Below, in pieces: positions 1 to 62,012 of a stretch of 64,000 nucleotides of DNA. The stretch lies in the NCBI GenBank assembly GCA_000182565.2, contig KQ257457.1, one strand, 5' to 3'. The stretch comes from Spizellomyces punctatus DAOM BR117. Lineage: Eukaryota. Numbering within the stretch: position 1 is the stretch's first letter; the number at the start of each line of letters is the position of its first letter. Below the pieces are notes generated by a model. That model was not told the DNA's origin and did no database searches. It was given only the letters and a program-made list of their open reading frames with translations. A program made the translations under genes and the position numbers.

Positions 1-3000
1 ACTCGATAAACTTTTGTGCAGTCAATTCCGGACGGTTAATGTACCCCTTGGCAACTGAGGTCCGCCCACCCACAACTCCCCAATAGCACCCCGCGGCACG
101 ACATGCTCACCCGAAACAACCATCGCATCACACCCGTCAAACACTTTTCCAATACAACTTGGCCGATCCCCTCGCAAGACTTTATGAATACTACACCCAA
201 TCGTTGCTTCCGTCGGTCCATAAGCATTATAGAGCACTCCAACCCACTCATCAAGTACCCGTTGCGTTAATAGTTCTCCACCCGTGACAAGCACCTCTAC
301 ATCCGGTACATCCGCTCGTCGCACCAAGGCCGCAACAGTAGGTGTTAAATCCATATGCGTGACCCGTGCAGACCGGATCACCCCCGTCAAATCAGATAAT
401 AAAACGTCTTTAGAAGCCGAAACGAGCGTACAGCCCACACGCCATGCCAAAAACGTTTCGAAAACAGACACGTCAAACGTGTAGTTTGCGAATTGGAGGA
501 ATCGGGATGTGGAGGTGATTGGGATCGTTGATTCAAAAGCTTTGAGGGCTGCGTAGAGGTTTGCGTGGCTGATTTCAACACCTTTGGGTGTCCCCGTCGT
601 TCCCGATGTGTAAATAACATAGCAAGTATCTGTTGGATCCACCTCCTCTGTCTCAAACTCTCCATCTGCATCCCCTTCTGAATTCTCCACAATGATACAA
701 TCGATACCCGGCAATTCAAGTCCCCTTGACACAACCACCCTCTTTGCATCTACATCCCCCACCACAAACCTCTTTCGCTCCATTGGGGCCTCAGGGTCAA
801 TAGGAACATACCCCGCCCCACATTTAAGCACACCCAACAAGGCAACATACATCCACACACTCTTGACCACAATAATGGGAACAAGATCCCCATGACGGAC
901 TCCAGACGCTCGTAATCGCCTCGCAAACCGGTTAGCTTGCCCATTTAATTCGCTGTATGTCCACACCGTCGTTTTTTGCCCCGTCATAAATTCCAAAGCA
1001 GGATACGTGGGTCTCGTCCGTGCAAATCGTTCAACACCACTTGACATGCTCTCAAATCCCTTTATAGGCTTCCCATGCGTTTTGGAGAGGGTTTGGGGTG
1101 GCAGGGTCGGTAGGGATGTGCTTGGTGCCTCTGGACGGGTCAACATATCTGTTAGGATCACTTCATAGATGTGGAGGAGGAGATCAAGTTGTGGGAGGGC
1201 GAGACGGGTGGTTGTGGCATGGAGTCTCAAATGCGTTGATGTGGATTCGAGTTCAAGTGAGAGTGCATACTGTAGCAAAAAGTGGTGAGTATTTCCTTTG
1301 TTGTTCATCCCCCCCCAAAAAGACACACAATATACTTACATCCACATTGGCTTTCCCATCCACAACCCTCCAAATCCCATCCGAATTTTGAACCTCCTCT
1401 TTAGGCCTCACAACAAAAAGCGTCTCAAACAAACTCTTTCCAACCCATTTCTGAATATCACGTAGGGGTGTACACGCGTATGGCATCCCTTCTCGATGTT
1501 GGGCATCGAGTTCTTGGATGAGGGATAGGTTGGTTTTCGTGGGGGAGAGGGTTGTGCGGATCGGGAGGGTGTTGAAAGTCGGTCCGGGGATGGAGGTAAT
1601 GTTGGGGATGGGGAGAGTTCGACCTGATGTCAAGTGTCCAAACTATGTAGAAAAATCACAAGTCAAATAAATAAAATAAAAAACGACAGCATCGCCCAAC
1701 GAGAAACAAGAAAAGAACATACCACAATATCCTCTTCCCCACAATAAATCCCCAAAACTTTGGCCCAAACCGCCTGTCCAACCGCCAAAAGCGATACCCC
1801 CAACCCTTTAACACGACTCTCAACGACTTGACTCATAACTTCACAAACCCTAACAGAACCAATTCCTTCCACCCCACCCAAATCCGGAACCAACGTCGGA
1901 ACAACGCCTTTTAGTCTCTCCATCCAATACTTTTTGGCAGGAGCCTCGGGTCGAGATAGGATATACTCTACCACCCCGCGATAGGCCGGTCGGGTGGGTA
2001 CCAACCCCCCACGATAAACCCCTTCAACATCCCTTAAAATCATCTCAAAACTCCATCCATCATATAACGCATGATGCATGGATAAAACAAGGTACACATC
2101 TTCGCCAACATGTACCTCCCCAAACGCAATCGGCGGATCACCCAAACTCATTTCAACACCTTCCATAAAAGCCTCTATCCCCTCCTTTGAATCAACATGA
2201 ACAACCGACCACGGCATCCACACACTCGATCGAACAACCTGCGCCATACCCCACACACCATCAACAACTTGAAACGAAGACCGAAGGATATCCATACCCC
2301 GAATCACACCCTCCCAAGCCATTTTCAATCGTTCGACATTCGTACCGCTGTTCAATTGTAACACTGTATGCGTGATATACTGTCGCGGATCTTGATGCGT
2401 TTGGGCTAACATGCCTTCTTGGAGGGGTGTGCACGGGTAGGCTTGTAACTCATTGGAGGGTATATCCACCACGGAACTCACAGATTGAATCACACGGTGT
2501 TCAAAAGCCTGTAATTGAGTCCTAAAGTCACCTGAAATCGTATCCACCGGTTCTTCTTGGAGCATGGGAACCAACATCCCAATAGATGGATATCGCATCA
2601 ATTTGGACACAGGGACATTTATACCGCGAGTTTGTAAAGCGCTGCACATGCGAATGGCACTAATCGAATCCAATCCCAGTTGAGCAAGCGTCGTAGTCCG
2701 CGTGATAGAATCAGGGGGCACATTAGCAGTAGATGCAAGTACTTGTCGAATCGCCGTTTCCAAATCCGTCAAAGGTCGCATATCCGTTTGTTTTGGAACA
2801 ACGGAATGGATATCCAGGGCTTTATAAAGCGCTTCAAGAGCCTTTCGATCTGTTTTGCCTGTACTCGCCAAAGGCATTTTCCCAATCGAAAACACATGCC
2901 GTGGTCTCATGTACATTGGTAACGACTCAACAGCTTGATCCACCAAATGTTGCATCTCATCATCCAAAGGTTCTAATCCACTCGTACCTCCCACACAAAG

Positions 3001-6000
3001 AAACGAAACAACTTGGTCCCGCACTTGAGAAGGGTGTCGACAAACGAGGGTAGAAACATCCAAAACACCTCGAACACGTCCCAAACAAGAAGAAATCTCA
3101 CCCAATTCAATCCGTATACCGTTTAACTTGACTTGATCGTCTGCTCGGCCTAGGAACTCAATACTCCCATCCGCCAACATACGAACCACGTCCCCGGTTT
3201 TATAAGTCCGTCCATAATCATGTAACATGACGAATCGTTCGAAAGTCAACTCAGGTCGGTCTAGGTACCCCTTTCCAACCTGCGGTCCACCAATAACGAG
3301 TTCACCCACCCCACCCAACGGAAGGACTCGTCCATCCGCCCCAACCACAAACCCCGAGCACGTTTCCAAGACCCGTCCAATACACTCTGGCTTGGTCCGT
3401 TTATCAACACGCGTCATAACACACCCAATCGTCGCTTCAGTCGGTCCATACGCATTAACCAAAACCACATCCTCTCCACTCCACTCATCCACAACTCGCG
3501 CCGTCAAGGCCTCTCCACCCGTAACAAGTACCTCAATAGTAGGCACTCGATCCCTCCGTACCAAAGCCGCAACCGAAGGCGTCAAATCCACATGTGTGAT
3601 CTGCATACCCGTTAAAGCCCCCTCAAGATGCGCTAAAAGGACATCCTTGGGTGCAGAACAAACAGCAAACCCACACGAAAACGCAAAAAAAAGCTCAAAA
3701 ATACATACATCGAATGAACAGGTTGCGAATTGGAGGAAGCGGGAAGTAGGTTTCCATGGTATGCTTGTTGTAAACGCGTGTAGAGCGTTCACGGCATTGT
3801 CGTGGGTGATTTGAACGCCTTTGGGTTGGCCAGTTGTACCCGATGTATACAGCACGTATGCTACGTTTGTGTTTTTCACCGTGTTGGATCGTGTGTGTTC
3901 AGTCGAGGTGTCCCGTGCATGCTCTTTCAACGTATCGATAGAATCCAAGACAAGGGGCATCAACCCATTGAACGCATCCACATCCAAAGACCCCACCACA
4001 ACCACACCCCCACATTCACAGACCATAAACCGCTTCCGCTCAATAGGCAAATCTCGATCGACCATCACAAATGCTTTCCCGGCTTTCAGTACACCCAATA
4101 AAGCAATATACATCAGTACACCTTTTTCCAGACTGATGCCCACCACCTCTGCATCCGTTTTAGATGCCACCCACCCAGCCATCTGATTCGCCAGCCGATC
4201 GAGTTCCGCATAGGTATACACGACGGGTGCTGCCTCGACACGATCGTACCAATACAATGCTGGTGCGTCAGGTATCCTCTCCACATGCCCTTCAAACCTC
4301 GCATGCAAAACCGACGGCGCAATCTGTTTTGGAGGGTGGTTTGCTATAGAGAGGCGTTCGGGCGGTATGAGGAGATGTTTGGCGGGTGCATCCGGGGTGG
4401 TGATAATAGAGTGGATCACGTCGTCGAGTTGGGACAGAAACGTGTGTGCGTGTTGTGTGGATAGGGTGGACGTTTTGGATGCGAGGCGGAGGGTGAGGGA
4501 TGTCGATGTGGATTCGACTTCAATGGAAAGTGGGTACTGTCGATAATAAAAGTAAAAGAGTGAGCTTTCGTACACACAACAGAGTGCACACACAAAACAC
4601 ACATAAATAAATACTCACATCCACTTTGGCATCCCCCATAACCTCCTTCCAAACATCACCACCATGTTCCCGTCCTTTCATATAAACAAACAAGGTATCA
4701 AACAAACTCGTACTCTTGACCCATTTCTGGACTTGACGCAACCCAACCGTCTGATACGGCAACACGGCAGCATTTCCTTTTTGCAACCTGCTCAACGCAT
4801 CCGTATTCGATCCATCCAATCGAATCCGACAGGGAAGGGTATTAAACGTTGGTCCAAGAATGGATTCAACGTCCTGAATTGGAAGCGTACGTCCCGAGAT
4901 AACATGTCCGAAAACAATATCCGTTGTAGAGAGGTACGTCGACAAGAGTTTTGCATACGCGAGTTGGAATAGCGCTAATAGGGTCGTACCCGTCACTTTA
5001 CAAAACCCTTCCAGAGTCTCCATGGAATGACGGGACGTCTCTTGAATCATGTACTCGGTACCAACATCCCCATTCAAAAACCGTTGTCCACTCAAATCCG
5101 GAAACCGCGTTCCAGACCACCCTTCTAGTTCCCGTTCCCAAAACTTTTGGGCATCATCGGATGAGACGCCCAGTGCGTACTCTACACACTGCGAAAACGG
5201 GGGTCGAGATACTACCGTATCTGCTTTGTATGCTTTTTGAACGTCCTCGAACATCAAGTCCAAACTCCATCCATCGTACAGGGCATGATGTAATGACAGC
5301 ACACACTGAGACCCGAATGGCGACCCAACATACCGAACACGAATGGGAGGTGTCAAAAGACTCAACTCAAGTTGATCCTTGTAGGATCCAACCCGCTCAA
5401 GCACGTCGTCCCATGTTTGACACATATCGGTAGACCAAACCTCCCCAACATCCTTATAAACAACCTGCGCAAACCCATCCCGCACACCACAAAACCCTGT
5501 TCGGAGTACCTCGTTGGCACGACACACAGCCAACCACGCCGTTTCAAGTCGTTCCGGAACGACATCTTGTTCCAAGGGCAACACAAAATGATTCACATAT
5601 AACCCTGGTGTCGCGATACTAGCCGCGATCATACCCTCTTGCAACGGCGTACACGGATACACCCCAACCACCTCAACGTCTCCCACCTGCTCGACAATCT
5701 CTTGTCGATGCACGCGGTTGAATTCTGATATAGCCTGTTGACCCCGCACCAATGGATTCTGAACCTCTTTGTTCGTCCCCCGATTCCGATCCGCGAGGGC
5801 TGCCATACCAGCAACACTCGGTACTTGCAACATATCCGATACACTCAAATCAACACCATGAGATCGTAACCGAGATGAAACAAGAATGGCACTCAGTGAA
5901 TCCAGGCCGAGTTCAAAGAGGGTGGTGGAGTGAGTTATATCGTTTTCAGAGGTGTTGGATACGGTAGCGAGAACGGTTCGGAGGGTCGTTTCTGTACGTG

Positions 6001-9000
6001 TCCATTCTTTGCTTGTGATGCCATACCCGCTGTCGCTTCTTATCATACTCGGCGTAGCGGTTTCAAAAAGCTTGCCAAGTGCTTTTGTATCTGTTTTCCC
6101 GGTTGCACCCAGCGGAATGTGTGTGACAACAAGGATATGAGCAGGGACCATGTAAAGAGGGAGCACCCTTTTAACTCCCTCCAAAATCGTCGCAACAATC
6201 TCATCCCGTTTCTGTGACTTGGCTACGAGCATGTCCCCTTCACTCAGAGAAGCACACGCAACAAAGGATACAATCTGCTTCTTGGGTTGTTCAGGATGTT
6301 TCAATAAAAGCGTCACAACAGCTTTCACATCCGCACAACTGGATTTGACCACATGCGAAATCTCATCAACTTCGATTCGGATACCGTTTAATTTGACTTG
6401 TTGGTCTGCCCGACCTTGGAATTCGAGTGTCCCATCTGGCATCATACGGACAAGGTCACCCGTTTTGTATAGCCTGTGATTCTTCTTTGTGATCGGATCC
6501 GTCCATTCCACAAACTTTTGGTCAGTCAATTGAGGTTGATTGAGGTACCCCCGTGCAACCAGTGGGCCACCCACACACAATTCCCCAACACCGCCTTTCA
6601 ACACGGGCGACAACGGCCCACCAACGCCCATGACAAACGCGGAAACATTCCCAAAAGGCCGTCCAATGTTGGTAGTCTTGTCCGTCACCTTGACCCCCGC
6701 CAACATCGTACACCCAATCGTCGCCTCGGTAGGCCCATACGCATTAAAAATATTTTGATCCGGACCCCACTCGGCCAACACTTGCTGCGTCAGGGCTTCG
6801 CCGCCCGTCACAAGCACCTCAAGACTAGGCACATTGGAACGACGAACAAGCCCCGCGACACTCGGCGTCAAATCCGCATGCGAAACATTCAAGGACCGTA
6901 TGGCGAGTTCCAAATCCTTCAACAGCACGTCCTTCGGTGCACTGCACAGGCAAATCCCCACACTCCATGAAACAAGTGACTCGAAAATAGATACATCGAA
7001 CGCGCAGGATGCAAACTGGAGAAACCGTGACGTTGGCGTAAAGGGTATGATCTCCTTGAACGATGAAATACTCTGCACAACGTTACTGTGCTGGACCAAC
7101 ACACCTTTGGGCCTCCCTGTTGTTCCGGATGTATATAAAACATACGCTAAATGCCCAGCCGACAATCCATCAATAACCGGATTCCACCTCGGCTGAGCGT
7201 TGATTTGCGATTGAATGTATCGCACATCCAAAGGCATAACCTCCACATCCCCAAACTGTAAATCCACATATTGTCTCTCAACGCTCAAGACAAGCGTTGC
7301 GCGCGTATCCTTTATGACAAACCGTTTTCGTTCCGCCGGCGCGTCCGGATCCACAGGTACATACGCTGCTCCGGCTTTTGATACACCCATCATGGCTGCA
7401 TACATGAGTGGCGAGCGTGGTATGCAGACTGGGATCATGTCCTCGACACCTACGCCCCTCGTCCGCAGAAAATGCGCAATACGGTTCGCCTGGTGATTCA
7501 ACTCTTCGTAGCGCCATTGAAGTGTTTGACAATGAGTCTCGGTAATATCCATTGCGAATTCCAGTGCAAGATCCGTGGGCTTGTGTGCTGCGTGGTATTC
7601 TAGCCAGCTGTGCATGAACGTTATCTGGGAAGGGACATCATTGGCCTGTGCCAGTGGATTACAAATCGAAAGAAGATGCGATGGGTGGTTCGGTTCATTC
7701 ATATTCGAGTCCGGGTGCGTGATGGTATCTATGAGAGTCGACTCGAACTGCTCGGCCAGCAAGCCTGCTTGCTCTGCCGATACCATATCGCTTTTGCATG
7801 CGATTTCAATGGTGAGGGTTCCGTCCGACCTTGCTTGGAGTTCAACTGCAATGACAGACTGTAACAACAGGTTATGACATATGAATAATTCTTGCGAAAA
7901 ACGGGACACTTTTATACGCTACCTCAACCTCACCAACTCCTCGAACACTCCTCCACAACTCCTCACCAGCACCAACCTCAACCCGATCAAACACAAAAAG
8001 CGTATCAAACAAGGCGCGTCCATCGGTTACTCCAGCCCATTTTTGAATCTTTCTTAGAGGGGTGTGCTGGTATCGCAACAGATCCGTATACGCCTTTTGC
8101 ACCTGTTGGACAAGCGACCTGTATGTCACGGTTTCCTCCGAAAAGGTAATGCGACATGGAACAGTGTTGAGACACGGCCCAATGATATCGTTCCAGGATT
8201 GGGTTGCATCCGTTCGGCCAGAGAGAACAACTCCAAAAGCGGTGTCGGGCGTGCCTGTGTAAGTGGAGAGGAGCTTGGACCAGGTGGCCATCCCAAGGGC
8301 TTGGAGCGTCGTGTCCATCTCTGCAAGAAAAGGGCACAATCAAGTCAATCACCATTTTCAGAGCGGTTAACACCACATGACAAACAAACCTCGACATGCC
8401 CTCTCAACAACCTCCAAGCCAACTCCCACGTTCCTCACAATAACGGTACGTCCACCCTCCTTGACTCCACCTCGTCCAGAAACATCCGGGAAAGCAACAG
8501 GTTCAAATCCATCCAAAACCTCCTTCCACATCCTCTCAGCCCGCACGTCCTGGCCACTCTGTGCTAAAATCCGTTCAAGAGCCCATGAAAACGACGGCGG
8601 GTCTTTGATCGCGTCTCCATGATAGTGTGCGCGGACTTGATCGAGAATGAGACGGAGGGAACGTCCATCGTAGAGCGCGTGGTGGATGGAGAGGATCAAG
8701 TACGGGTTGGTTGGGCTGTTGTGGTAAGTGAGCGAGAGAGGCGGACGACCGGATAGGAGATTGGGAAACGGTGTTTGAAGCACATTGGTAATCGTCTCCT
8801 AATAGACGACAGATGGTCAGTTACACAACTCACATAATTCAGAATAAATCCATGGACTTACCTCAACATCCTCTCCACTCTCCTCATTCCTCCACACTAA
8901 CTGTCTCCTTTTCCAAACAACCTGGGCAAAAAGCCACTCAGCACCCTCTACATCTCCAACCGGGACAAATCCAGTCCTCAACACTTCATTCAGCTCCACA

Positions 9001-12000
9001 ACCTCCTCCCAAGCCCTTTGTAACCTCTTTGCATCGACATGCGAGGAAATCTCCCAAACATGATAATTCACGTACCCCCCACCTCGCAACGTTTGTCCCA
9101 ACATGCTTTCCTGCATGGGCGTGCAAGGTCGAATGGCCGCAATATCCTCCACCTTCCCTTCCAAAACTTCGGTGACGTACCCCCGAACAAGACGATCAAA
9201 CGCTTGGATCGTATCACGGATAACAGCCAACGCACGTTCATCTGATACATGCTCTTTCACTCCATCCTGGGCATCAAGTAGAGCAGCCATTCGATCAATC
9301 GTAGGGTTCTGCATGATGTCAATCATAGAAAGGTGAAGGTTGGATTGCTTGAATTTGGCCGAGAGCTGGATGGCGCTGATAGAATCCAAGCCCAGCTGGA
9401 AGATGGAGGTGGTGCGACCAATGTCCATCTCGGGGACGTGGGAGATTGATGAGATGTGCGATCGGATGACGAGTTCCATTGGACTCCAGGGTTCGGTGGT
9501 GGAAGCGTTCGCCGCTACTGCATCCTGTCTAGCAGACGAGGAAAAGACGCCCAAAAGCTCTGTATCCATTGTCTCATAGATGGCTTGAAGGGCCTTGCGA
9601 TCCACCTTGCCCGCCAATCCTCTTGGTAACTCTGTGAGCGGAACAACTGTGTTCGGTACCATGTAGTAGGGTAACGTCCGGCGACACTCTTCTACGGCTC
9701 TTTCAATGATATCTCGCACGGTCTCGTTTGGCGAGAGAACGCTACGGTCCTGGTGACCTCCCAAAGCCAAAAACGAAACCAATACATCCCTCCCACCTTC
9801 TCGCCGCCCAATAACCGTGACAGCGTCCCTGACCTCACCGCCACTACTCCGGACCAAAACAGCGTTAATTTCTCCCAACTCGATTCGAAGTCCATTCAAC
9901 TTGATTTGATCGTCTTTACGACCAAGATACTGTATCTCCCCCGAGGGGAGTATGCGCGCAACGTCACCCGTACGATACACTCGACCCATATTTGGGATAT
10001 CGCGGAACTTGGCGTCAGTCAAATCCGATCGGTTGAGGTACCCTCTCCCCACTTGGGGTCCTCCGATGCACAACTCCCCCACACATCCCAAAGGTAACAC
10101 CGTCATCTTCTCATCATTAAAATCAACCACCATGGCCGAACACGAGTTCAACGGTTCACCAATGCAACCTATGCGGGTCTCCTGCTCCACTCCACAATAT
10201 ACTACGCAAACATTGGTCGTCTCAGTGGGTCCGTATGCGTCAATCAGCGTCACCCCGTCGACACAAGCCCACTCATCATGGACCCGCCTTGTAAGCGCTT
10301 CACCCGTTTGGATCAATACCTTGACCGAAGGGACATGATCCCGCCGAATCAACCCAGCAGCCGTGGAAGTCAAATCCAAATGCGTAGGCACAAGTGTCCG
10401 AATCGTACTCTCCAAATCACCCAGCATGAGCATTTTGGAAGCCGAACAGAGCGTCATGCCACCCGCGAATGCATAAAAGATTTCAAACACTGAGACGTCA
10501 AACGTGTATGTCGCAAATTGCAGCATTCGAGACGTGGTTGGGTCAGTCGGTGGGTAGAGACGTTGAAGAGCCTCGAGATTACTCATCACATTGCCATGCT
10601 CAATCATGACACCTTTAGGTTGCCCGGTTGTACCGGATGTGTAGAGGACGTAAGCTAATGTTCCTGGGGTTAGCTTGATATCCGGGTTCCCTCTCCGATC
10701 CTTTAACTCGATTTCATCCAAACAAAGGACTTCGACCCCGCTGTCAACCATTAACGTCTTGAACGCGCCCACAGTAATCGCCACCTTTGCGCCCGCATCG
10801 CGCAGAATGAACTGTACACGTTCAGCTGGCGTGCCCGGCTCAATCGGGAGATAAGCGTACCCTGCCTTCAACACCGCGAGGATGGTAATATACATCAGGG
10901 GACTCTTGTCAAAGCAGATTGGAATAATAGATTCCAAAGGAAGGTTAAATGTCATTAGATGGTGCGCGATACGGTTGGCTTGCTCATTGAGGGATTTGTA
11001 GGTAATAGACTCGATCTTTGGCACAGCTTCTTCGTTTTCCCAGAGAAAGTCGAGTGCTGGACGATCAGGTGTCTCCTGTGCCCAGCGTTCAACGTACTGG
11101 TGCATCAGTGGAGCGGATCCTGGTATCGTGCATGGAGAGGCGTTGAGCAGTGATGCGCGATTGGAAACCGCCCGTTGAATGGGATAAGAGAAGAAACCAG
11201 CAGGAGCGGTCCTCTCAATAATGTCCAGTAAAATGTTTTCATATTGTTCCAATAGAATGTCGACGTGGGAGGGAGGAATTATGTCCGCTTTGCAACGAGC
11301 GCGGATAAGAAACTTGTCCCCATTCGGATCAATTTCAATCATGATTTTATCCTGTGTACAAAATGTTAATATGAAGCAATACTGTACAAAGCTTGAGAAC
11401 TTGACGAAAGACCCACCTCAAAGGCATCGTCCGTGTCAACAACCTCCAGCATCCGCTTATTCTCAGTCGCACCATAGTCGACCTTTTGGTAGACTACCCA
11501 AGTGTCAAACAAGCCATGACCACCCATCCCGCCCCGCCCAACGTTCTCAGCCAAAACTCGCAAATGCACTGCAGAATGCTCCAACATCTCGGCACCATCC
11601 TTTTGGATCGCTTGCAACATGCCAAGATCGTCATTGGACACAATGACTCGAACAGGTGCTAAATGGATACACGGTCCCATGACAGCTTCGATTCCATCAA
11701 CGGGTATATTCCGACCGGATAGCGTCGACCCGAAGATGACATCCTGTTGTCCAGTATAGAGCGCAAGAAGTTTGGCCCATGTCGCTTGGGCGAGCGTTTG
11801 GGGTGTTATACTCAGAGCGCGACAATATTCTTCAATGATAGAAGTCGTCAGAGCAGCCACGCGCGAAGATATGTGTATGTCTTTTACTGGAGGTGTCGTC
11901 TTGGACGTGAGAGTCGGAAAAGATTCAAGGGATGGAAGATCTGCCAGGTACGTCTTCCAGTAATTGACTGAGGATGCAGCCTCCGCTGCTGGCGTTGAGA

Positions 12001-15000
12001 AATGGTGCTCAACAATGTTCCGGAATGCCGGGCGAGGTAATGACGACTGGGAAGAAAGGTAGGCCTCCACATCTCGTAACATTAGAGGTACGCACCAACC
12101 ATCATAAACAGCATGGTGGACCATGATGGCCAGGTAGCTACTACCGCCAGACCTGACAGTCACAAACATCGCAGTTACAGGCGGGACATGCAAAGACTCA
12201 AACTGTAAAGCGTTTCTCTTTTGAAAGTCTTCCATGACACCTGCCACTTTAGCCTCATCCTCAACCTCTGCGATAGAAAACGAATTCTCCCCCTGCCGTG
12301 GACAAGATCCGGGTTCCCAAACAACCTGAAGGAATGTCCAAGGTGCATCCTTATTGAGAACACCGTCCGCACTTGCGAATCCAGTCCTCAGGATGGGGTT
12401 TGTTGTCGTTAAATGCTCCCACGCTCGACGAAGTGAGTCCGCTGTGACATTTTTTGCCACCCGTATCAGTATTCGATCGTAGTACCGCTTACCCTTGGGG
12501 TCTTTCAACGTCTCAGCAAGTAGACCCTCTTGTAGAGGTGTACAGGGATAGCAGTCTTCGATGCTACTAGTTGGAACCTTCAGCAAGTGGGACAGACTTG
12601 CAGAGAGTCCGCTAATGTTGGAAAGAAAATCTTCCCTCAGAGCAAGGCGTTGTTGCTTCAGTTTGGTCAAACTCTCACGAGCTTTATCGTTAGGACTGTC
12701 GAGAATCCTGCCAATCTCCTCCATTGTTGGACTCTGGAGCAGTTGCGTGACAGAGATATGCATATTCCGTTCCCGAAGTTTGGAACACAAAATGATAGCG
12801 CCCAAAGAGTCAATCCCCAAAGAGAAAATGGACGTTTTGAGCGTGACTCCGGTAAGCGGAGTCTTGCTCATCTTACAGACTACCTCGCGAAGGGTGGATA
12901 GTGTAGCGTTCTTCTCCCACACTTGCTCGTCTTCAGCGCTTTGCAGAGTAGAAAGCGGTGTGTCCCTAATTGCGTCCAAGTCTAGTTCTGAAAAGAGTTT
13001 AGCGAGGCGCTTTCGGTCCGTTTTTCCTGACAGATTTCTTGGCACGCTGTCAATGAATACGAATGCATTTGGAATCATGTATGGAGGAAGATGGGAAGCA
13101 GATGAAGACTTGCAAGCATCTTCAACCTCTCTTGGTCGCAGAACGCGGATGAGCTCGTACTCGCCCACGACTGGGCAATCCAGATTACCAACAGCTACAA
13201 AAGAAACCAGCATCTTGCCTCCAGCTCCTCGCTCGTCATTTATCACAGCTGTCACCACGTCGACTACTGCTGAATGCGCGCCTGCAACGACATGGCTGAT
13301 TTCTCCCAATTCGATCCGTTGACCTCGGAGCTTGACTTGCTGATCGTCTGCAACACGCCCAATAAACTCAAGCGTGTTGTTGGGGAGGAGGCGAACCAAG
13401 TCTCCTGTTTTGTAGATCCGGGTTGCAGGGTTTCGTGGGTCAATGAAGTAAGCCCCTGCATTGGCTTCCGGCCGGTTGAGATATCCCCTCGCGACCTGTT
13501 TACCACCAACATAGAGCTCTCCAACATGTCCTATAGGTACCACGGACAAGGAAGGTGCGTTCGGTTCTTCTTGACCCATGACGTAGAGCGTACATGTGTC
13601 AAGCGCGATTCCAATATTACTTGGTTTCGTCGTCGGATCAAAGTCAGCTGCCATGGTGCAATGGATGGCACATTCCGTAGGTCCATAGGCATTGTGCAAA
13701 CTTCCATCCCCAGCCCACTCGTCTACCACCTTTTGCGTCAACATCTCACCAATGGTCAACAATGCCTTGACACCTGGCACATTCGATCTCGTAACCAACC
13801 CAGCAACAGTGGGAGTGAGTTCCATGTGGGTGACATGGAGAGCATTGATGGTATCTTCCAGTCGAGCTAGAAGCAGCTCCTTACTAGCTGAGCAAAGACA
13901 CATACCCAGGGAGAAGGGGAAGAATATCTCAAATACAGAAACATCAAATGTCGGAGATGCAAATTGAAGAAACTTTTCGCCAGCGTCGAGGGCTGGTGAT
14001 GCGTGCGGTATGATGGCATGATGCGAGAGGATACTTTCGATTCCGTTTCCATGTTGAAGCTGGACACCTTTGGGCTTTCCTGTCGACCCAGACGTGTACA
14101 TCACGTAGGCTAAATGCTCTTGTTGAATCCGTGAACAGTCCGTGTTGCTCTTGTCCTGGCCATCCATATCCAACTGAACTGCCTCCGAGTCCAAATTGAC
14201 GAGGATCAAATCTCTCAAAGTGTTGTGCTCCAAACAAAGAGTTACGTTCTTTGCATCCGTGATCATAATGTTTGCGGCGACGTCCCCCGCTACAAAAGCA
14301 ATTCGCTCCACGGGTGCATCGCTTGCGAGAGGAACATATGCCGCCCCGGCCTTGAGGACCGCAAGGAAGGCAATGTACATATTCGGTGAGCGATCTACGT
14401 ATATTGGAATCATATCATCTGGCTGGACGCCGTGGCTCAAGAGAACCCGAGCGAGCTGATTGGCTTTTTCGTTGACCTCTTGATAGGTGTACCGTGTCGA
14501 CGCGCCGGTTTCAATAGAATGAAGAAACTCGATAGCTAGCCGATGAGGGTAGAGGATACATGTTTGCTCAAAAAGGTGGTGTAATAGAGTGGCACCTGGT
14601 ATTGTGGCATTCGTTCGCTCGATCGGGTTCGGGTTTTGAATGGAAAGTTGTGATTCCGGCAGGGCGGAAAAGTCGAGAGCCAATGGATGTGCGATAGGAT
14701 TGGCGAGCGTCCATTGCAGAATATAATCGAATTGCGACAATAGCTGAAGGCCCTGATTAATGGGAAAGAGGTTTGAGTTCCAGGTGAGTTGGAAGGTCAG
14801 TTGGGTACGGGTAACGTTAACGAGGAACAAGAGCTTGACCTAGATAAAGTATGGCCTTAGTGAAATCAGGTCACGAAAAGATAAACATTCGTGGCTAACG
14901 TACGGGGACATTGACTTGAACAGCGCTGCAAAAGTCTTCCCATTCGCCCTCATTCATATTATCTAGGGACACTGCCAATACCGTATCTGCTGAGACTCTG

Positions 15001-15386
15001 GTATCCGCTTCTTCCTGCTCTAAAACGGACCGCGCTCGATTAACAAGATCTAGATTGTTGAGCGCTGAGTGTAGCTCCACCCGAGTAGGTATGGTTACTG
15101 GTCCCTTTTCAAGATCGGCTAGTTGAAATCCAACAGCTTGCTCGCCAACGTAACCTTTCAAGATTTGAGCCCAAGCGACAAGTATGACAGCATGCATCGA
15201 GTTGGGACCATAGGTTTTGGCACACGATTGTGCGAAATGCGATACATCGATCGACGAATGGAATGTTTCAGTAAGATGAGATGCTGTAGATGCAGAGGAA
15301 GGCAGCAGCTTCCCGCTCAAGTTTGGAAAGGCCGTGATTAGCTGGTCAGCAGCAACTGGCGAAGGTGTTGGGTGTCCGAGCATCAT
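1..15386 (-). CDS. sidC: Ferrichrome-type siderophore nonribosomal peptide synthetase (SidC/NPS2/Sib1 family); partial-C-(A-T-C)x4-A5..., 3' end runs off the window
   Basis: Inferred exons: 15386-14904, 14839-11417, 11351-8862, 8798-8390, 8320-7923, 7858-4619, 4536-1723, 1642-1340 and 1269-<1, all joined in frame by GT-AG introns of 63-82 nt. Five A domains carry YTSG(S/T)TGxPKG and YGPTE; A1-A4 also show (K/R)TGD. Four T domains (LG(I/L)DS) and four C domains (HHA(V/L)YDG) are present. A1 has LLTIGEML and GPTECAIHCT, and A2 has GPTETTNVC, as I recall for ferrichrome synthetases. The gene is divergent from a sidA gene. Apparent frameshift at 54/55. Confidence 0.93.
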
Positions 15387-16838
15387 GAAAATAGGTCACA
15401 CTTGAGGAGTCGTATATAGCCGATGCGAGGGAAATTGATGAATAAAATGCGAGCTAATGTCCTGAGAGATCAATTAAAGATAATGGTATAAGGCTCTGAA
15501 AGATGCGCCGTAATCAAAGAGGTAATGGGTAGCTCGATAGAATATAGATGATGCCCGATTGCACAAATGCTGCTGATCAAGAAACACAGAGCCAGAGGAA
15601 TGAGACGTAAGCCATCGCTTTACAGCAGCAAACAACGACAAAAAAAATAAGAATCGCAATTGCATGCAACTCTGGAGATGACCGACAAGTGATCGGCTGC
15701 AATGGCCTGTTACGATCCTTCCGGCTTGGAAGGAGGCATTTCCCACATTCACAATTTTTTCAAACGTTTTTTTTTTTCTTTGTGAATTCTATTTTGTCTG
15801 AAAACAAAAAACTATAAAATAATCGGATACCATGTCCATACGATGGTGCATTTTTGGTCCCTTGGCAAGTCGTCGTCGGACCCTTGGAGAACAGGAAGAT
15901 GCTGCCAATCAGCGTGCGTTGTCGTCGGGCCCTCCAAAGGCTCAAAAAATACTCTTCCTGGTTGTTGTACCAATATCGTCACCACCTCCAAAAGACTAGA
16001 GCACACCCGGCACCCTCACACAGAACCCTCGGTTGAGGGAGACCCGATTGGAAGACAAACAAGGTTTCTTTTTCTCTTCCTGCAATCAATTCATTTGCTA
16101 CAGGATTCCTGCCCGAGAGCAACCAACGACCGACAACCGACGGACTGGGATGTTAAAGTGCGCAGATATCAAGCTTACAAGGAAATGACGGAATAAGTGT
16201 GCTAAAAAGGTGTTCCAAAAAAACTTTAAATTTCAACGACCGCGTGGCTTCAACTAGTCGTGATTGGCTGACATTGTCCGATCGTAGCTGGATCGATCCA
16301 ATTGTAAACAAATGCGTTTATGCGCGCCCTTCCAATGCTGCTTTTTGCGTTGATGTTGGATTTTGCTTGCTTTCACTTTTGCATCGCCGCATCGGTCGTC
16401 GTCCGCCAATCGGATAGAGTTTTCCTTTTCATGGCACTTACCATGTCCATTGTTTACACACTTTCGGGATGGTCCTTCGGCCCCCCCTCTCCACACAGGT
16501 AACTCACCAAAAATGAAAAAAAATTGCGTCGGCGAAGGGCCATGACTCCTCGTGCGTAATGGATTCTGAACTTGTCGCTTTTTTGTGCCGACGACGGGAT
16601 ATTGCCCTGGCATGTCCCTAGAGTTTTTTTTTGTTCTTAAATACATCCACCCTCTCGCGTACCCCACCAAAAACAGCACCTCTGTTTGGTATGTGGAAAG
16701 CTTTGTACTTGATCCTCACCCATAACACGCCGCAATACCCACTAGAATAGACATTTTCCATTCCTTATCCCTTGGCTCCCATCATTATCGATTTCTTACA
16801 TCTTTTAACTCCTTCACACACGAGACACCAAGAGCAAA
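15387..16838. promoter_or_regulatory. Bidirectional promoter between the NRPS and the sidA-acyltransferase fusion
   Basis: Head-to-head ATGs at 15386 (-) and 16839 (+). Contains AATCGGATA twice (15821, 16408), a 12-bp direct repeat TACCATGTCCAT (15828, 16439), CCAAT at 16406 and AGATAA at 15478. Confidence 0.6.
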
Positions 16839-18938
16839 ATGCCTGCCACGCAATCACAGCCAGAACAATTTGATGTTCTCTGCGTCGGGTTTGGACCAGC
16901 AGGACTGGCCATTGCGGCTGCTATGGCAGACGAAAAAGTCATATCTCTCGACACGACAACAGCGGATGAGAGCCTACGTGTTCGTTTCATTGAAAAGCAG
17001 CCTTCCTTCCTCTGGCACGGTGGTATGCTTCTTGATGGTACAAAGATGCAAATCTCCTTTCTCAAGGACTTAGCTACCCTGCGCGACCCCACGAGTAACT
17101 TCACCTTCCTCAAATACCTGCACGAGAACGATCGTCTCGTTCCATTCGTGAATCTGGGTACCTGGAACCCATACCGGGTCGAATTCAACGATTATCTGTC
17201 ATGGGCGGCAAAAAAGTTTGAGAAATTCTGCGATTACGGTGAACAAGTCATGTCTGTGGACCCATTGATTCATCCCCAAGACGGGACCGTCAGTCAGCTA
17301 CGGGTTACTTCAAGAACCTCAGATGGAGCCCGCATAGTAAGAGACACCAAGAATATCATTGTGGCCATCGGTGGCCAGCCACGGTACCCAGATTTTGTTC
17401 ACCGGTCTATCGGTTCCCAAGTAGACCAGACAACTACTCCCCACCTTGCACATACCTCTCAATACACCTACCGTGTCCAACAAATGCTTCCAGATGCTGA
17501 GGCATCATACCGTCTCGCGGTGATCGGATCGGGACAGAGTGCGGCCGAAGTATTCATGGACTTGGGACGAAGGTATCCCAACGCTGAAGTCAACCTCATC
17601 TTCCGCGATTCGGCTCTCCGCCCGTCGGATGACTCTCCCTTTGTCAACGAGGTGTTTGACCCTGACCGTCGCGATGCCTTTTATGCGCAAACATCCGAAC
17701 AACGGAAAAGTTCTCTTATCCGGGATAAAGCAACCAACTACTCTGTTGTCAACGAAAATCTCATTAATGAGATCTACGGCATGATGTACATGCAACGGTT
17801 ACCTGGAAGCGAAACCCGACCTAAGCATGCACTGATGCCAAATCATTCCATACTGGACATGCACAAGTCGAGTGGCGGCATCACTCTAACGCTAAGGGAC
17901 TCTCGCAGCGATAATACGACTGGATATGAACGGACTTTTGATGCCGTGTTTCTCGGCACGGGATACGAGCGATTCGCCCACTTGGATGTGCTACAGCCCG
18001 TGCTGCCGTACCTGAACAAGGATCAGGACAACAAGATTGTTGTCGGTCGTGACTACAGAGTGTCAACAACCAATGCCTGTCGCGCTGGCATCTACGTACA
18101 AGGTTGTTGTGAAGATACCCACGGACTAAGTGATACACTCCTTTCAGTTCTGGGTGTTCGAGGTGGCGAGGTGCTTCAGTCCATTCAAGCACGCATGAAC
18201 AAGGTGCAGATTCTCGGTCAGAAGCAGAGCGGCAACATGGTGGATGTTAAGCAAACCGCTACTCCACCAGCATCACCGGTACCTTCTCCTACCACCTGTC
18301 AACGCATCAACGTAGACAGGATAGATAGTGGGATCAACGTGACGGGAACCAAGAAAGAGTCGGGCCTTGCACCATGTCCACCCAAACCCTTACCTGGCAC
18401 TATCCTCTTCTCCAAATATATACCTCACCTGAATGAAACATTCTCCCTTCGTGTCGCCAACCTCCAGACCGACATCCCCCTTCTGACAAAATGGCACAAC
18501 AATCCTCGAGTCAGTAAATTTTGGAATGAAGTAGGAGATGAGTCTCATCATACCAAATACCTCTCGACACTTCTCGCCGATCCCCACTCTATTCCTTGCA
18601 TTGGCATGTTCAACGACGTCCCTTTCGCCTACTTTGAGATTTACTGGGCGGCACACGATCGACTCGCAGGATATTATGATGCTGGTACGCATGACCGTGG
18701 GTTCCATCTTTTGGTAGGAGAAGAAGCATACAGGGGCTCCCACCGTGTGGAGGGATGGTTGCCCGCAGTCGTGGAGTTTATGTTTGGAGATTGCTCGGGC
18801 ACAAAGAGGGTTGTTTTGGAACCTAGAGCGGACAATGGGAAGCTGATAGGATACTTGTGCAATTTTGGATTCCAGTTCAAAGGAGAAATCAAGCTGCCGC
18901 ATAAGACGGCAGCGTTAATGGTTATGGAGACGGAATAG
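16839..18938 (+). CDS. sidA: L-ornithine N5-monooxygenase fused to a C-terminal N5-hydroxyornithine acyltransferase (GNAT, AlcB/IucB/SidL/SidF type)
   Basis: Single 699-aa ORF. The N-terminal part has GFGPAGL (FAD), WHGGML..MQISFLKDL, IGSGQSAAE (NADPH), RPSDDSPFVNE, ATNYSVV, FLGTGY and HGLSDTLLS. After a Pro/Ser linker come PPKPLPG..FSKYIPHL, WHNNPRV..FW, PFAYFEIYWAAHD, DRGFHLLVGE, VVLEPRADN and LPHKTAALM. Confidence 0.93.
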   Translation: MPATQSQPEQFDVLCVGFGPAGLAIAAAMADEKVISLDTTTADESLRVRFIEKQPSFLWHGGMLLDGTKMQISFLKDLATLRDPTSNFTFLKYLHENDRLVPFVNLGTWNPYRVEFNDYLSWAAKKFEKFCDYGEQVMSVDPLIHPQDGTVSQLRVTSRTSDGARIVRDTKNIIVAIGGQPRYPDFVHRSIGSQVDQTTTPHLAHTSQYTYRVQQMLPDAEASYRLAVIGSGQSAAEVFMDLGRRYPNAEVNLIFRDSALRPSDDSPFVNEVFDPDRRDAFYAQTSEQRKSSLIRDKATNYSVVNENLINEIYGMMYMQRLPGSETRPKHALMPNHSILDMHKSSGGITLTLRDSRSDNTTGYERTFDAVFLGTGYERFAHLDVLQPVLPYLNKDQDNKIVVGRDYRVSTTNACRAGIYVQGCCEDTHGLSDTLLSVLGVRGGEVLQSIQARMNKVQILGQKQSGNMVDVKQTATPPASPVPSPTTCQRINVDRIDSGINVTGTKKESGLAPCPPKPLPGTILFSKYIPHLNETFSLRVANLQTDIPLLTKWHNNPRVSKFWNEVGDESHHTKYLSTLLADPHSIPCIGMFNDVPFAYFEIYWAAHDRLAGYYDAGTHDRGFHLLVGEEAYRGSHRVEGWLPAVVEFMFGDCSGTKRVVLEPRADNGKLIGYLCNFGFQFKGEIKLPHKTAALMVMETE

Positions 18939-19102
18939 ATCAGAGAAGATGGACTGTAAGCACACTATTGTAAAATAACTGTTCAAAAAGTGGAGATCGC
19001 TTACGATACATTGGAACCACATTGTAATAAATCCATAAAGAGATAAATGACACTTTAGTTCCTGGGAAGCTCTTGCTTTGCTGTCTTTTCGTCCTTGACA
19101 CC

Positions 19103-21682
19103 ATGGATAGTGACCAGGAGGATTCTGACTTTCCGGAGGCGGATGTCGCATTGTAACTATGTTCTCGTTGGAGGGAGCTTTGTAAACTGATAATAATAAC
19201 ACGTTGTTTTTTCTTGGCTTTTAGGGAAAGAGTCTTTAGCCAAAGGACACTTGGGAGACTATCCCAGGCACCCGCATCACAACCAATATCTTCACCGTCC
19301 AACTCCCAGCCATTAACACAGAAATCTTCCCAGTCCACAATATCGCCAAACAAAGCAGCAAGATCGCCAGACCCCCACACGTCGGGAGACCTCAATTGGC
19401 AATTCACCTCATCCGCGTCCCCCACGGCGGCCTCTGGGCGAACCAGAGTTGCGCGCACACCCTCTACATCACCCGAGCCACAAATTCCTATCTTCAAGGT
19501 TCCCTTCCTTCCTGGCACTGTTGCTGAGGTGGAACAAGTCTATAGTCAGCTGACGATGACGCCCAACATTAGCCTTTCACCGAGCCATTCTGTCCCTGCA
19601 ACCGTTACGCATAGCGCCAGCAACAGTGTCAGTGAAAGAGATCAGCACGCCCCACCTTCGATACCGGCCAGTTCTTCGGTCGATAACGAGACCGCAGCGC
19701 CTCCACAAAAGGCTAAGCCGCGTCAACGACGGAAGACCGTAGAAACGCTCGCCGTAGATTTGGCAGGTGACATCGAAATGGTACCAATTGGAGAGGATGA
19801 TGAGGATTGGAGACCTAAAAAGAAGGCTTCATCATCAAAACGGAGGCGAATCCCGACCCGGCGCAATACTACTGGTAGGAATCGCGCGGATGCACGATCG
19901 GGCGATACGATGTCAATCAAAAGAGAAACGCACTGTGAACAGTTTGAGACGTTGGTGAGGGAAGCAGAGCGTGATCATGTATCTGGAGACCTGGTACTGG
20001 GAGGCCGGCTTGGCGGCAGCGGGCTGGGGGGACTGGAAGGGCTGAGAAAGAGAAAGAATCAGAAATTATCCTTGGAAGCAGAAGATGAGCTGGACGAACG
20101 GAGAGAAGGAACAGAGTCGCCACCTGTGCGAGTCTATACTGAAGAACAGCATGAAGGCCGGATGGGACCGCAGCGCCAGAGGAGGAGAGCGCAAAAGCAG
20201 GCGGCTCTGGAAGCAGAAGCCGAGCTGGAAGAAGAGAGAGAACAGCTGGGACACGTTCAAGAAGATCTTGACGAACAGGTTACCGCCGGAGAATCTATTC
20301 CTATGGCTGTCCGTAAAGGGACAGCGCAACGGCCATCTTCGCAGAGCTCACTCCGAAAGACACCCGTTCTGGACGTGAAAGGGAAAGGTCCAGCCGAAAG
20401 AGCGCCAGCAAAAGATGTACATGGAATCAACAGGGCACAGAGTCGAGGTGGGGCCTCTAAAAATCATCAGGAAGAGTCTATAGACGATCGGATGACGGAG
20501 ATGGATCCGCACCGCCTTGACAAAGGACAGGTGGAAAATAGTCCCACGACAGAGTCACAGAAAGTACGACAGGGTAACACCAGTACAGCAAAGCCGGTTA
20601 CTACAATAAGAGCTGGTAGCTCAGTACCTGGGTCCGAGGTACAATCGCCTGCGAGTCCCTCTCTCAGCAACAATGGGCAAACGTCGAGTTATGCCCCTAA
20701 TTCACAGCAGAATCTTGTACAAGCCACCAATAGCTCCATAACTCAATCAACTGAGAGCATGTCGAGCCTCGAATCCGCATCCAATACGATATTGCCCACG
20801 GCATCCGTCCTCTATCAGAATATCCAAGTCCTTCAACTTCAACTGGCAACACAAGCCCAACAGCTCGGGAACCTCCAAGCCCAATACAATGCACTTCAAA
20901 CCCAATTCAACGCAATGCAAAACCAATATTTCAACGACAAGACACATGTCCATAAACAATTGGACGGCACTGTGGATCGGATTGAAAATTTGGAGCAGTT
21001 TGCGGATAATCAGTACAAAGATAACGATTCCATCAAGGAGGATTTGAACCAGATGAAAGAATGGGGGCTTCACCAGATAAATGAACGGGCTGAAAAAATT
21101 GAGGAGCAGGTTGAGCATTTGGGTTGGAGGATTGATTCCATTGAGTGGGAGGAAGATGGAGAGGATCCGCCGAATGGGCAAAATAGGGATGATGACTGGC
21201 GAACGCTGGGACCAGACGATGCAAATCCAAGTTCATCGTCCGTCGCTGACATTGAAGAAGAAGGAGAAGAGGCAGCAGAGCAAGTCCAAGCTAGCAACAG
21301 TCAACATAAAAGTCCAAAAGCTCGATCCCATTTAGATCCCACAGTTCCTGCCATACAAATTGGACCAAACCGCGAATTTGAACGAAATATCAAAGACAGT
21401 AGCGAACTCCCAATGACATCCCCTCCAAGCTCACCGCCACGTACTCCCGTACCGCATTCACCTCCATCTGCTCAATCTCCTAGAAAACGTAAACCCAGTT
21501 TCATGTCACCCACAATCCCCCAAGAGTCTAACGACCCAGAGCTCGAGAAACAAGAGCACGAGGGTCGACCGGCGAAACGTCAGAGGTTGCCGACATCCAC
21601 AAGGCTTTGGACGGCGGGATTGATTAGTCTTGGAATATGGGCTGGGCAAGAGTGGTTGTGGGGTGGTGGGGCCGGGTTTTAA
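19103..21682 (+). CDS. Hypothetical disordered and coiled-coil protein with a C-terminal hydrophobic tail
   Basis: ATG at 19103; an intron at 19153-19224 joins in frame to the 822-aa ORF. Ser/Pro-rich and acidic/basic tracts, a Gln-rich heptad stretch (IQVLQLQLATQAQQLGNLQAQYNALQ), basic clusters and a terminal LWTAGLISLGIWAGQEWLW. Confidence 0.7.
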
Positions 21683-61328: not shown

Positions 61329-62012
61329 GGGATACAATATTGGATGATGAATTAAAAAAATTCGTATGAGGAGACAAGGTAAATGAGGAAAAGCTTAAAC
61401 GGTAGTGACGTCAAGCATCGGCTTGCGACGAGGATCAAGGACGAAAACTCCTTTAGGAAAGTAGCCCAAGAAGAGTTATGGCAGCTTAGATCGTCACCCG
61501 CCTGGGCAAATGGGTGGTATGCAAAGTGGCAAAGGAGACTAGTTCAACTGCCTGTCACTACACACGCTACAAGGTCACCCAGATGGAACTGGATTGGGCC
61601 TCAACAAAAGAATAGTTCTTTATTTATGTAGATGCCACCTCGTCGGAGTGGAGAGACGAACTGGCAAAACGCATAGTGCAAAAATCATCCATTGGAAAGG
61701 TTTTTTCATTTTCATTTTGGCCCTTCTTGCAGGGCACCAAACCCGAAAAGCAAAAAGCTCACCAACTAAAAAATGCACACTTCTCGAGAACGGGCAGGTC
61801 GTCCAATCGGGCGGACGAATAAGCCACACTAAGCCACAGTGATCGAATGATTTAAACTTTAAACCTTCCCCTCGTAAGCAGATGCACTGGATGCATGAAT
61901 CAACAGCACGACGCTACTGAATATAAAATATCTCATGCATTTTTACTTTTAAAAAGTCAATTTTGTTTGAAATGCCTCACACTTAATGAAGATGATATGT
62001 ACAAGTTCCAGT

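Follow-up and report, generated by a model that had tools for sequence, protein, structure and literature searches.

The 64,000-nucleotide stretch of contig KQ257457.1 analysed here (hereafter the window; Spizellomyces punctatus DAOM BR117, assembly GCA_000182565.2) probably holds a hydroxamate-siderophore locus of two divergent genes. One is predicted to encode a fused enzyme that makes N5-acyl-N5-hydroxyornithine (AHO), and the other a colinear nonribosomal peptide synthetase (NRPS) of the ferrichrome-synthetase family, most likely with five modules. Ferrichrome synthetases are the standard example of NRPSs that do not work linearly, and a colinear ancestor has so far been inferred from trees only. 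In the gene found here, each visible pair of thiolation (T) and condensation (C) domains is preceded by an adenylation (A) domain of its own (4/4), with no A-less T-C unit. All visible A domains group with those of ferrichrome synthetases, and the last three have AHO-type binding pockets. Such a colinear design with three AHO modules has apparently gone undescribed inside the ferrichrome clade so far.

Domain order and gene structure of the synthetase

The NRPS gene lies on the minus strand and runs from a start ATG at 15386 to base 1, where it leaves the window, with short introns splitting its reading frame. Profiles of the gene's own A, T and C domains, applied to the spliced protein, gave the order [C-like remnant]-A1-T1-C1-A2-T2-C2-A3-T3-C3-A4-T4-C4-A5 (window 15386..1, minus strand), in which the remnant occupies residues 1-241, A1 residues 242-776 and A5 residues 4591-4935. 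Pfam searches with the ten reading-frame pieces of the minus strand found AMP-binding in five pieces (E values of 1.2e-61 to 8.6e-73), PP-binding in four and Condensation in seven, the last amounting to four C domains in total. The serine motif LG(I/L)DS(L/I) is intact in all of T1-T4 (4/4), and HHA(V/L)YDG is present in all of C1-C4 (4/4). In the general nomenclature of NRPS core motifs (A3 to A10, A6 being GELxxGGxxxxRGY), domains A1-A4 contain core motifs A3 to A10. Domain A5 contains core motifs A3-A5 plus the first half of A6, and its remainder (core motifs A7-A10) lies left of the window. The initial annotation, which was made from the sequence alone, had described the order A1-T-C-A2-T-C-A3-T-C-A4-T-C-A5 without A-less T-C units and with intact T serines and HHxxxDG motifs, and the Pfam matches, profiles and motifs confirm this description.

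A search with the exon of module 1 returned P0121, a 100% identical protein of 4914 aa entitled 'amino acid adenylation domain-containing protein [Spizellomyces punctatus DAOM BR117]', and the window is therefore chytrid DNA. The first 241 residues gave no Pfam match, and in a phmmer search of a small set they weakly matched the C-terminal halves of C domains (E values of 2e-4 to 1e-2). Related chytrid proteins also have a partial C domain at the place of this N-terminal remnant. The features of the gene are as follows.

1..15386, minus strand: NRPS gene; corrected reading of 4935 aa to the in-frame TGA at 22-24, other frame from about 44 to 1
14600..15386, minus strand: N-terminal remnant (241 aa), by weak phmmer matches a degenerate C-terminal half of a C domain plus a C-A linker, with intron 14840-14903
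12995..14599, minus strand: A1, pocket FADVFEFETLIHATIHK, NPS2/Sib1 module-1 type, predicted Gly
12680..12910, minus strand: T1 (LGIDSL)
11223..12574, minus strand: C1 (HHAVYDG), orthologue of Dikarya C1; the span also takes in the C1-A2 linker intron 11352-11416, which is downstream of the matched C core
9579..11123, minus strand: A2, pocket FADVFEYDTITIATNVK, no substrate assignable; sister to Dikarya A2
9258..9485, minus strand: T2 (LGLDSI)
7727..9155, minus strand: C2 (HHALYDG), with introns 8799-8861 and 8321-8389 within, followed by linker intron 7859-7922
6068..7633, minus strand: A3, AHO-type pocket FADVFEVDTVGFATIGK
5771..6001, minus strand: T3 (LGLDSL)
4408..5680, minus strand: C3 (HHALYDG), with the C3-A4 linker intron 4537-4618 inside the span
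2827..4323, minus strand: A4, AHO-type pocket FADVFEFDTVGVATIGK
2539..2769, minus strand: T4 (LGLDSI)
1147..2460, minus strand: C4 (HHALYDG), with intron 1643-1722 and the C4-A5 linker intron 1270-1339 inside the span
1..1059, minus strand: N-terminal part of A5 (core motifs A3-A6), AHO-type pocket FADVFELDTVGYATIG; frame broken inside core motif A6
44..47, minus strand: run of four G (CCCC on the plus strand) with the frame change, GGPQLPRG before it and YINRPELTAQKFIE in the other frame after it

When P0121 was mapped onto the window, ten annotated exons and nine annotated introns were obtained, of which eight are true introns with GT..AG borders. Five of these eight (14840-14903, 11352-11416, 7859-7922, 4537-4618 and 1270-1339, minus strand) are phase-0 introns at one common site, between V(D/E) and xxxxxE, in the N-terminal remnant and all four C-A linkers; the other three are 8799-8861, 8321-8389 and 1643-1722. 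P0241, a relative called as an open reading frame (ORF), starts and ends at the same two linker intron sites. Because the introns recur at one linker site and P0241 is bounded by them, the NRPS modules appear here as exon-like units. The ninth annotated intron, 3646-3708 (minus strand), consists of 63 in-frame bases with an open frame, and its 21 codons, VCIFELFFAFSCGFAVCSAPK, cover the FDxS (core motif A4) region of domain A4, where each residue has its counterpart in the FDVSVFE...SASK stretch of A1, A2, A3 and A5. It was rejected as an intron for its open frame and its conserved coding residues; with this stretch restored as coding, the true protein is therefore 21 aa longer than annotated (4935 aa to the stop).

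Family membership, predicted substrates and the partner enzyme

Relatives were taken as the best 120 listed for the module-1 exon within lengths of 2026-5000 aa, so that proteins above 5000 aa, Sid1 included, fall outside the range. Dikarya ferrichrome-type enzymes make up 115 of these 120. The architecture A-T-C-A-T-C-T-C-A-T-C-T-C-T-C can be seen in 103 relatives, 14 of them with a split last C domain, and in three others four A domains precede two T-C units. Iteratively charged A-less T-C repeats at the C terminus characterise the known synthetase types (I-VI), not the hypothetical ancestor, and no such unit is among the four visible T-C pairs here. The NPS2/Sib1 module-1 code was found in 110 of the 120 first A domains, and the NPS2-type AHO code in 115 of the 120 last A domains; no enzyme of the NPS1/SidC lineage was among the relatives retrieved.

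A phylogenetic tree of A domains (77 rows, 518 columns, IQ-TREE quick search) was built with 16 A domains of other NRPS classes, and support was taken from the Shimodaira-Hasegawa-like approximate likelihood ratio test (SH-aLRT). All five A domains fall with ferrichrome-type A domains in a clade of 59 rows (SH-aLRT 100), and the 16 A domains of other classes lie outside it. A1 groups with the A1 domains of Phlyctochytrium and the Dikarya (98). A2 groups with the first A domain of Powellomyces and Thoreauomyces (100), and this group is sister to the A2 domains of Saitoella and the Dikarya (89). A3 pairs with the second A domain of Powellomyces and Thoreauomyces (99) in a group that is sister to the AHO-loading A domains of the Dikarya (83). 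A4 and A5 pair with the third and fourth A domains of the same two genera (99 and 93, respectively), and neither has a supported Dikarya partner in this tree. In the C-domain trees, C1-C4 are inside the ferrichrome C clade (96-97), C1 pairing with the N-terminal partial C domain of Powellomyces and with Dikarya C1 (99-100), and C2, C3 and C4 pairing with chytrid partners only. The last C domains of P0123 (Powellomyces hirtus), P0124 (Thoreauomyces humboldtii) and P0131 (Phlyctochytrium bullatum) form one clade with the terminal C domains of the Dikarya (99); the terminal C domain of S. punctatus is beyond the window. One sequence, og_Asphan_C644, formed a long branch beside C4 in the first C tree, and a tree rebuilt without it and four other long rows gave the same picture. 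Membership of the ferrichrome-synthetase family is well supported by these sequence comparisons. The label of ferrichrome-type NRPS given in the initial annotation is thus upheld by the A clade, by the 115 listed relatives and by the neighbouring ornithine monooxygenase/acyltransferase gene; A domains grouping outside the ferrichrome synthetases, which it had named as contrary evidence, were not seen among the five.

Binding pockets were read at the 17 positions of Table 2 of Bushley et al. (2008), and the extraction was validated on a Fusarium culmorum relative, from which the published FgNPS2 AMP1, AMP2 and AMP3 codes were recovered exactly. The A1 pocket, FADVFEFETLIHATIHK, is identical to that of ChNPS2 AMP1 at 15 of 17 positions and is predicted to select Gly. 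The A2 pocket, FADVFEYDTITIATNVK, has N330 in common with the NPS2 module-2 type and is otherwise unassignable; A1 and A2 are the only non-AHO (spacer) pockets. The pockets of A3 (FADVFEVDTVGFATIGK), A4 (FADVFEFDTVGVATIGK) and A5 (FADVFELDTVGYATIG) are all of AHO type, FADVFExDTVGxATIG(K), with K517 of A5 beyond the visible part, and A3 is identical at 12 of 17 positions to the published AHO code of FgNPS2 AMP3, FADVLEWDTIGYATIGK. The same three AHO-type pockets are found in Powellomyces and Thoreauomyces. Three consecutive modules (A3-T3-C3, A4-T4-C4 and that of A5, the rest of which is modelled on relatives) are accordingly listed here as predicted AHO modules. The visible part of the enzyme is colinear, with these three modules in a row, in keeping with the initial description of the synthetase as largely colinear.

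Upstream of the NRPS gene, at a distance of 1.45 kb and in divergent orientation, ornithine N5-monooxygenase and N5-acyltransferase domains are fused in a single ORF, whose product is predicted from its domains to make N5-acyl-N5-hydroxyornithine. The features of this side of the locus are as follows.

15387..16838, no strand: divergent intergenic region (1.45 kb) shared by the NRPS gene and the monooxygenase-acyltransferase gene; dip in chromatin immunoprecipitation (ChIP) reads
16839..18938, plus strand: fusion ORF of 699 aa (709 aa stop to stop), with Lys_Orn_oxgnase (E value of 8.3e-101) and a C-terminal GNAT domain, Acetyltransf_8 (E value of 4.2e-51)

A search of 1.84 billion representatives with the fusion protein found 2816 proteins at E<=0.001. 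Both domains are present in seven of the eight long representatives scanned with Pfam, namely those from a Phlyctochytrium species, P. bullatum, Rhizophlyctis rosea, Nowakowskiella sp., Chytridiales sp., Basidiobolus meristosporus and Conidiobolus coronatus; the eighth is bacterial and has two GNAT domains and no monooxygenase.

From these domains a route can be proposed. The SidA-like domain of the fusion enzyme would hydroxylate L-ornithine at N5, and its GNAT domain would then acylate the product, probably with an acetyl group, to give AHO. In the synthetase, A1 would load a glycine-type residue and A2 a second small residue, A3, A4 and A5 would each charge the T domain of their own module with one AHO, and C1-C4 would condense the residues in order. 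The terminal C domain, which is expected left of the window from the relatives, would release the chain, probably by cyclisation. Inter-module loading would not be needed, unlike in SidC- and NPS2-type enzymes, and the product would be a tris-hydroxamate peptide of two spacers and three AHO residues, unless one spacer module is reused.

Module number, ancestry and integrity of the gene

Four alternatives bear on this proposal, and they concern the family, the module number, the origin of the AHO modules and the state of the gene. That the enzyme is an unrelated multimodular NRPS, or belongs to the lineage of Acremonium persicinum Sid1, and merely resembles ferrichrome synthetases is very improbable. 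Identity to the Dikarya enzymes is only 29-35% per module, and Sid1 and all other proteins above 5000 aa were outside the searched range; against this stand the support of the ferrichrome A and C clades (100 and 96-97), the one-to-one pairing of A1, A2 and C1 with Dikarya domains, the match of the Gly-type and AHO-type pockets to published ferrichrome codes, and the linked monooxygenase/acyltransferase gene. As to module number, P0123 and P0124 have four modules that are orthologous to S. punctatus modules 2-5 and end in A-T-C, whereas P0131 has five A, five T and five C domains overall, including both module 1 and the terminal C domain. In all three chytrid relatives (3/3) the A5 orthologue is the last A domain and is followed by a T domain, a terminal-type C domain and the end of the protein, and none of the three contains an A-less T-C unit. 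Since the chytrid orthologues end in this way, the S. punctatus gene should run A5(rest)-T5-terminal C-stop and would thus most likely have five modules, not six. A six-module ancestral architecture has reportedly been proposed by Schwecke in 2006 as well. That a further complete A-T-C module, the sixth, follows left of the window and makes the gene a living copy of the six-module ancestor proposed by Bushley et al. (2008) is of low probability, given the 3/3 relatives, the five-module P0131 and the presence of only two non-AHO A domains. In its favour, the window stops inside A5 and leaves room for more modules, ferrichromes are cyclic hexapeptides of three AHO and three Gly/Ser/Ala residues, and the C-like remnant at the N terminus may be a trace of an upstream module since lost. 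Compared with the proposed ancestor, the three AHO-dedicated modules are present and the spacer modules number two, not three. Of the hexamodular ancestor suggested in the initial annotation, what stands is a colinear enzyme with at least five A-containing modules, three of them for AHO; six modules are unlikely.

The origin of the AHO modules is more evenly balanced. A3-A5 were rejected as recent in-gene copies, since each has an orthologue in two other chytrid genera; the paralogous A domains are 41-50% identical, each with its own orthologues in other genera. An older, chytrid-specific re-expansion, in which one module was triplicated before the Spizellomycetales genera diverged and ancestral modules 4-6 were not retained, comes near to an even chance. 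When all 12 chytrid AHO-type A domains were held as one clade, the log-likelihood was marginally better (by 1.47) and the approximately unbiased (AU) test gave p 0.539, so that this clade is not rejected. Among themselves the A3-A5 pockets hardly vary, and all three depart from the Dikarya AHO pocket at the same positions (239 F, 299 V). No other two C domains are as alike as C3 and C4 (44%), and the intron shared in position by the four C-A linkers and the N-terminal remnant agrees with a unit duplicated in tandem together with its intron. In the free tree, however, the A3 group joins the Dikarya AHO A domains (83) with the A4 and A5 groups outside, the paralogues are 44-50% identical, which makes any duplication old, and in Saitoella an A-less T-C unit is followed by an AHO-type A domain whose pocket is of the chytrid type, which suggests that early Dikarya, too, had dedicated AHO A domains further downstream. 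The initial annotation had proposed that one-to-one pairing with ancestral module positions would favour retention and clustering of A3-A5 duplication. Pairing was obtained for A1, A2 and C1 (and for the terminal C domain in the relatives only), with A3 near the Dikarya AHO A domains (83), and was not obtained for A4, A5 and C2-C4; clustering was not seen in the free tree, which splits the A3 group from A4 and A5, and is compatible with the data in the constrained one. It is a tentative and rather doubtful proposal that the chytrids keep the pre-iterative state of the ferrichrome clade, with one A-T-C module per hydroxamate and a later collapse in the Dikarya that left one AHO A domain and T-C repeats, and that they make a tris-hydroxamate pentapeptide siderophore not seen before. 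If this were true, the origin of ferrichrome-type siderophores would move back to the base of the fungi.

Two further proteins touch on this question. P0122 (Saitoella complicata, 4676 aa), a model truncated at both ends, reads C1-A2-T-C-A3-T-C-A4(AHO)-T-C-T-C-A(AHO-type, cut off); five A domains are possible in the complete gene, which would perhaps be the Dikarya enzyme closest to the six-module form. P0283 (Basidiobolus ranarum, 984 aa) is a single module, A(AHO-type pocket)-T-C, whose C domain is in the terminal-C clade of ferrichrome synthetases, and it represents a minimal relative or else a fragment.

The integrity of the gene depends on A5. After GELWVGGPQLPRG, a one-base frame change is found in the run of four G, and the annotated protein ends in ...GELWVGGPQLPRG-TLTVRN-stop, with the TGA at window positions 22-24. 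Past the break, the other frame reads YINRPELTAQKFIE to the window edge, where the chytrid A5 orthologues have Y(F/L)xRP(E/D)LTxxKFV, and alignment with A1-A4 and these orthologues places the break exactly between the G and Y of core motif A6. An intron was rejected as the cause, since the sequence past the break is conserved coding sequence. One extra G in the run would restore the frame, and no further stop or shift is present in the remaining 14.8-kb coding sequence; we infer that the frame change is either an assembly error or a very recent lesion. Four public sequencing runs were mapped to window positions 1-19500, with insertions and deletions listed from >=3 reads. Contigs of X1 (2011, labelled 'DNA?') skip five of the eight introns (1270-1339, 1643-1722, 8321-8389, 8799-8861 and 14840-14903) exactly at GT..AG; X1 therefore behaves as cDNA, and the NRPS gene is transcribed and spliced.

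A recent pseudogene in DAOM BR117, with a real one-base deletion in A5 and a siderophore that is no longer made, is a distinct possibility, although we lean against it. The frame change is present in the assembly and was accepted by the annotators, the assembly rests on 11.7x Sanger coverage with manual review (Russ et al. 2016), and no inserted base is listed from about 3x of independent ChIP DNA reads. The other 14.8 kb of coding sequence is nevertheless free of stops and frame changes, 14 codons past the break are still conserved, the break sits in a homopolymer run, which is a classic site of base-calling error, the gene is transcribed and spliced, and the break has too few reads for the 3-read limit on listing insertions and deletions.

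Several points weigh against an intact five-module ferrichrome-family synthetase. The assembly does contain the one-base frame change in A5, where the public gene model stops, and if the change is real, module 5 would be without core motifs A7-A10 and the enzyme would be dead in this strain. Bases 1-88 are without any X1 or X2 contig, the X19 ChIP DNA reads cover the break at about 3x with no insertion or deletion listed at the threshold of three reads, and NRPS transcripts reach only low depths, 2-5 in X1 and about 0.1-0.6 in X18. T5 and the terminal C domain are beyond the window and are modelled on relatives, of which P0123 and P0124 are possibly truncated gene models and P0131 is a patchy one. 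With A3(C-terminal part)-T3-C3 as query (3702 proteins at E<=0.001 among 8000 candidates), no downstream protein of S. punctatus was found among the 120 matches listed at 622-1981 aa. At the head of that list stands P0241, which is orthologous to module 3 and comes from another organism (identity of 50% as listed and 53% by blastp). When the A5 piece was the query, at 766-2185 aa, NRPS proteins of 29-43% identity only were found, none from S. punctatus. The trees are quick searches with SH-aLRT support only and contain no sequence of the NPS1/SidC lineage, of basidiomycetes or of A. persicinum Sid1, and all 115 Dikarya relatives retrieved have NPS2-lineage codes. Pocket codes are predictions, and the 10-residue code fails for non-AHO domains (Bushley et al. 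2008).

Comparison with known synthetases and other observations in the window

Among known systems, the NPS2 lineage (Cochliobolus heterostrophus NPS2, Fusarium graminearum NPS2 and Schizosaccharomyces pombe Sib1; Bushley et al. 2008) has the A and C clades, an A1 pocket nearly identical to NPS2/Sib1 AMP1, an AHO-type pocket and an orthologous C1 (and terminal C in the relatives) in common with the chytrid enzyme. Enzymes of this lineage have three or four A domains, six C domains and two A-less T-C units served by one AHO A domain, whereas the chytrid enzyme has an A domain in every visible module, three AHO-type A domains, probably five C domains and two spacer modules, and comes from a group reported to be without such genes. 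Aspergillus SidC, the ferricrocin synthetase, is alike in its expected product class, in condensing AHO residues in turn and in release by a terminal C domain (Jenner et al. 2023). In SidC, one A domain (A3) charges three T domains by inter-modular loading and A2 itself forms amide bonds (Jenner et al. 2023); the chytrid enzyme would need neither. Ustilago maydis Sid2, compared by description only, likewise has more than one complete AHO module (Bushley et al. 2008), but it has two where three are found here, and it keeps a terminal T-C unit.

A. persicinum Sid1 (the AS2488059/ASP2397 synthetase), also compared by description only, is likewise colinear and devotes one A domain to each of its three AHO residues; unlike the chytrid enzyme it has six A domains and bulky residues as its three spacers, and Jenner et al. 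(2023) report that it arose separately from the ferrichrome synthetases. The initial annotation had named good documentation of ferrichrome synthetases with five or six A domains as contrary evidence: a colinear six-A enzyme for a ferrichrome-like siderophore has been reported in Sid1, with a separate origin stated in the same source. The chytrid relatives P0123, P0124 and P0131 are module-by-module orthologues with the same three AHO-type pockets and no A-less T-C units. The gene models of P0123 and P0124 differ in being without module 1 and starting with a partial C1, and all three are unnamed hypothetical proteins with no study attached.

According to Bushley et al. (2008), three complete AHO modules are a feature postulated for the ancestor, and Batrachochytrium, the one chytrid in their survey, gave no candidate. 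A 2024 preprint places the Chytridiomycota among the groups without SidF/SidL homologues and without hydroxamate siderophores. In Tabima et al. (2020), A domains of Basidiobolus and Conidiobolus are in the SID clade and S. punctatus is used for polyketide synthase trees only. No description of a chytrid ferrichrome-type NRPS was found in the literature, a search whose coverage was of main texts, with supplementary trees and tables outside it. On the present reading of the locus, at least some chytrids would have a ferrichrome-family NRPS in which three modules are dedicated to AHO, and beside it a fused enzyme that makes AHO. The locus would then offer a natural counterpart to the inter-module loading of SidC-type enzymes, serve as an outgroup when module evolution is rooted and point to a likely new siderophore. 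Its value is tempered by a module number of probably five rather than six, by the standing of both retention and re-expansion, and by the frame change in the assembly copy.

The remaining genes of the window are unrelated to the locus and include those for an oxysterol-binding protein, a RasGEF and glycosyltransferases. No siderophore transporter of the major facilitator superfamily was seen in the window. Transmembrane pieces of an ABC transporter at 59886-61394 (minus strand) are about 45 kb from the NRPS gene, too distant to belong to the locus. Long open frames at 48476-53506 (plus strand, 1677 aa) and 26448-28250 (minus strand, 601 aa) had no Pfam match at E<=0.001. The iron-repressor motif ATCWGATAA has one match in the window, inside coding sequence, where 0.9 would be expected by chance, and so gives no signal.

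In the mapped runs, the fusion gene is covered by a single gap-free, cDNA-like X1 contig (16659-19052) at a depth of 113. The ChIP-seq DNA of X19, for which the antibody is unnamed, is 10- to 20-fold enriched over both gene starts (13000-15600 and 16250-19500), with depths of 33-60 per strand there compared with about 2-3 over the rest of the NRPS gene, and it dips at 15601-16250 in the shared intergenic region between the two enriched gene starts. The RNA run X18 shows a pile-up confined to the 3' end of the fusion ORF and the bases past it (18774-18978, plus strand, depth 44-168), with many reads that have short loose ends and an A>G change at 18775 in 8 of 33 reads, which gives it the look of a tag-type library.

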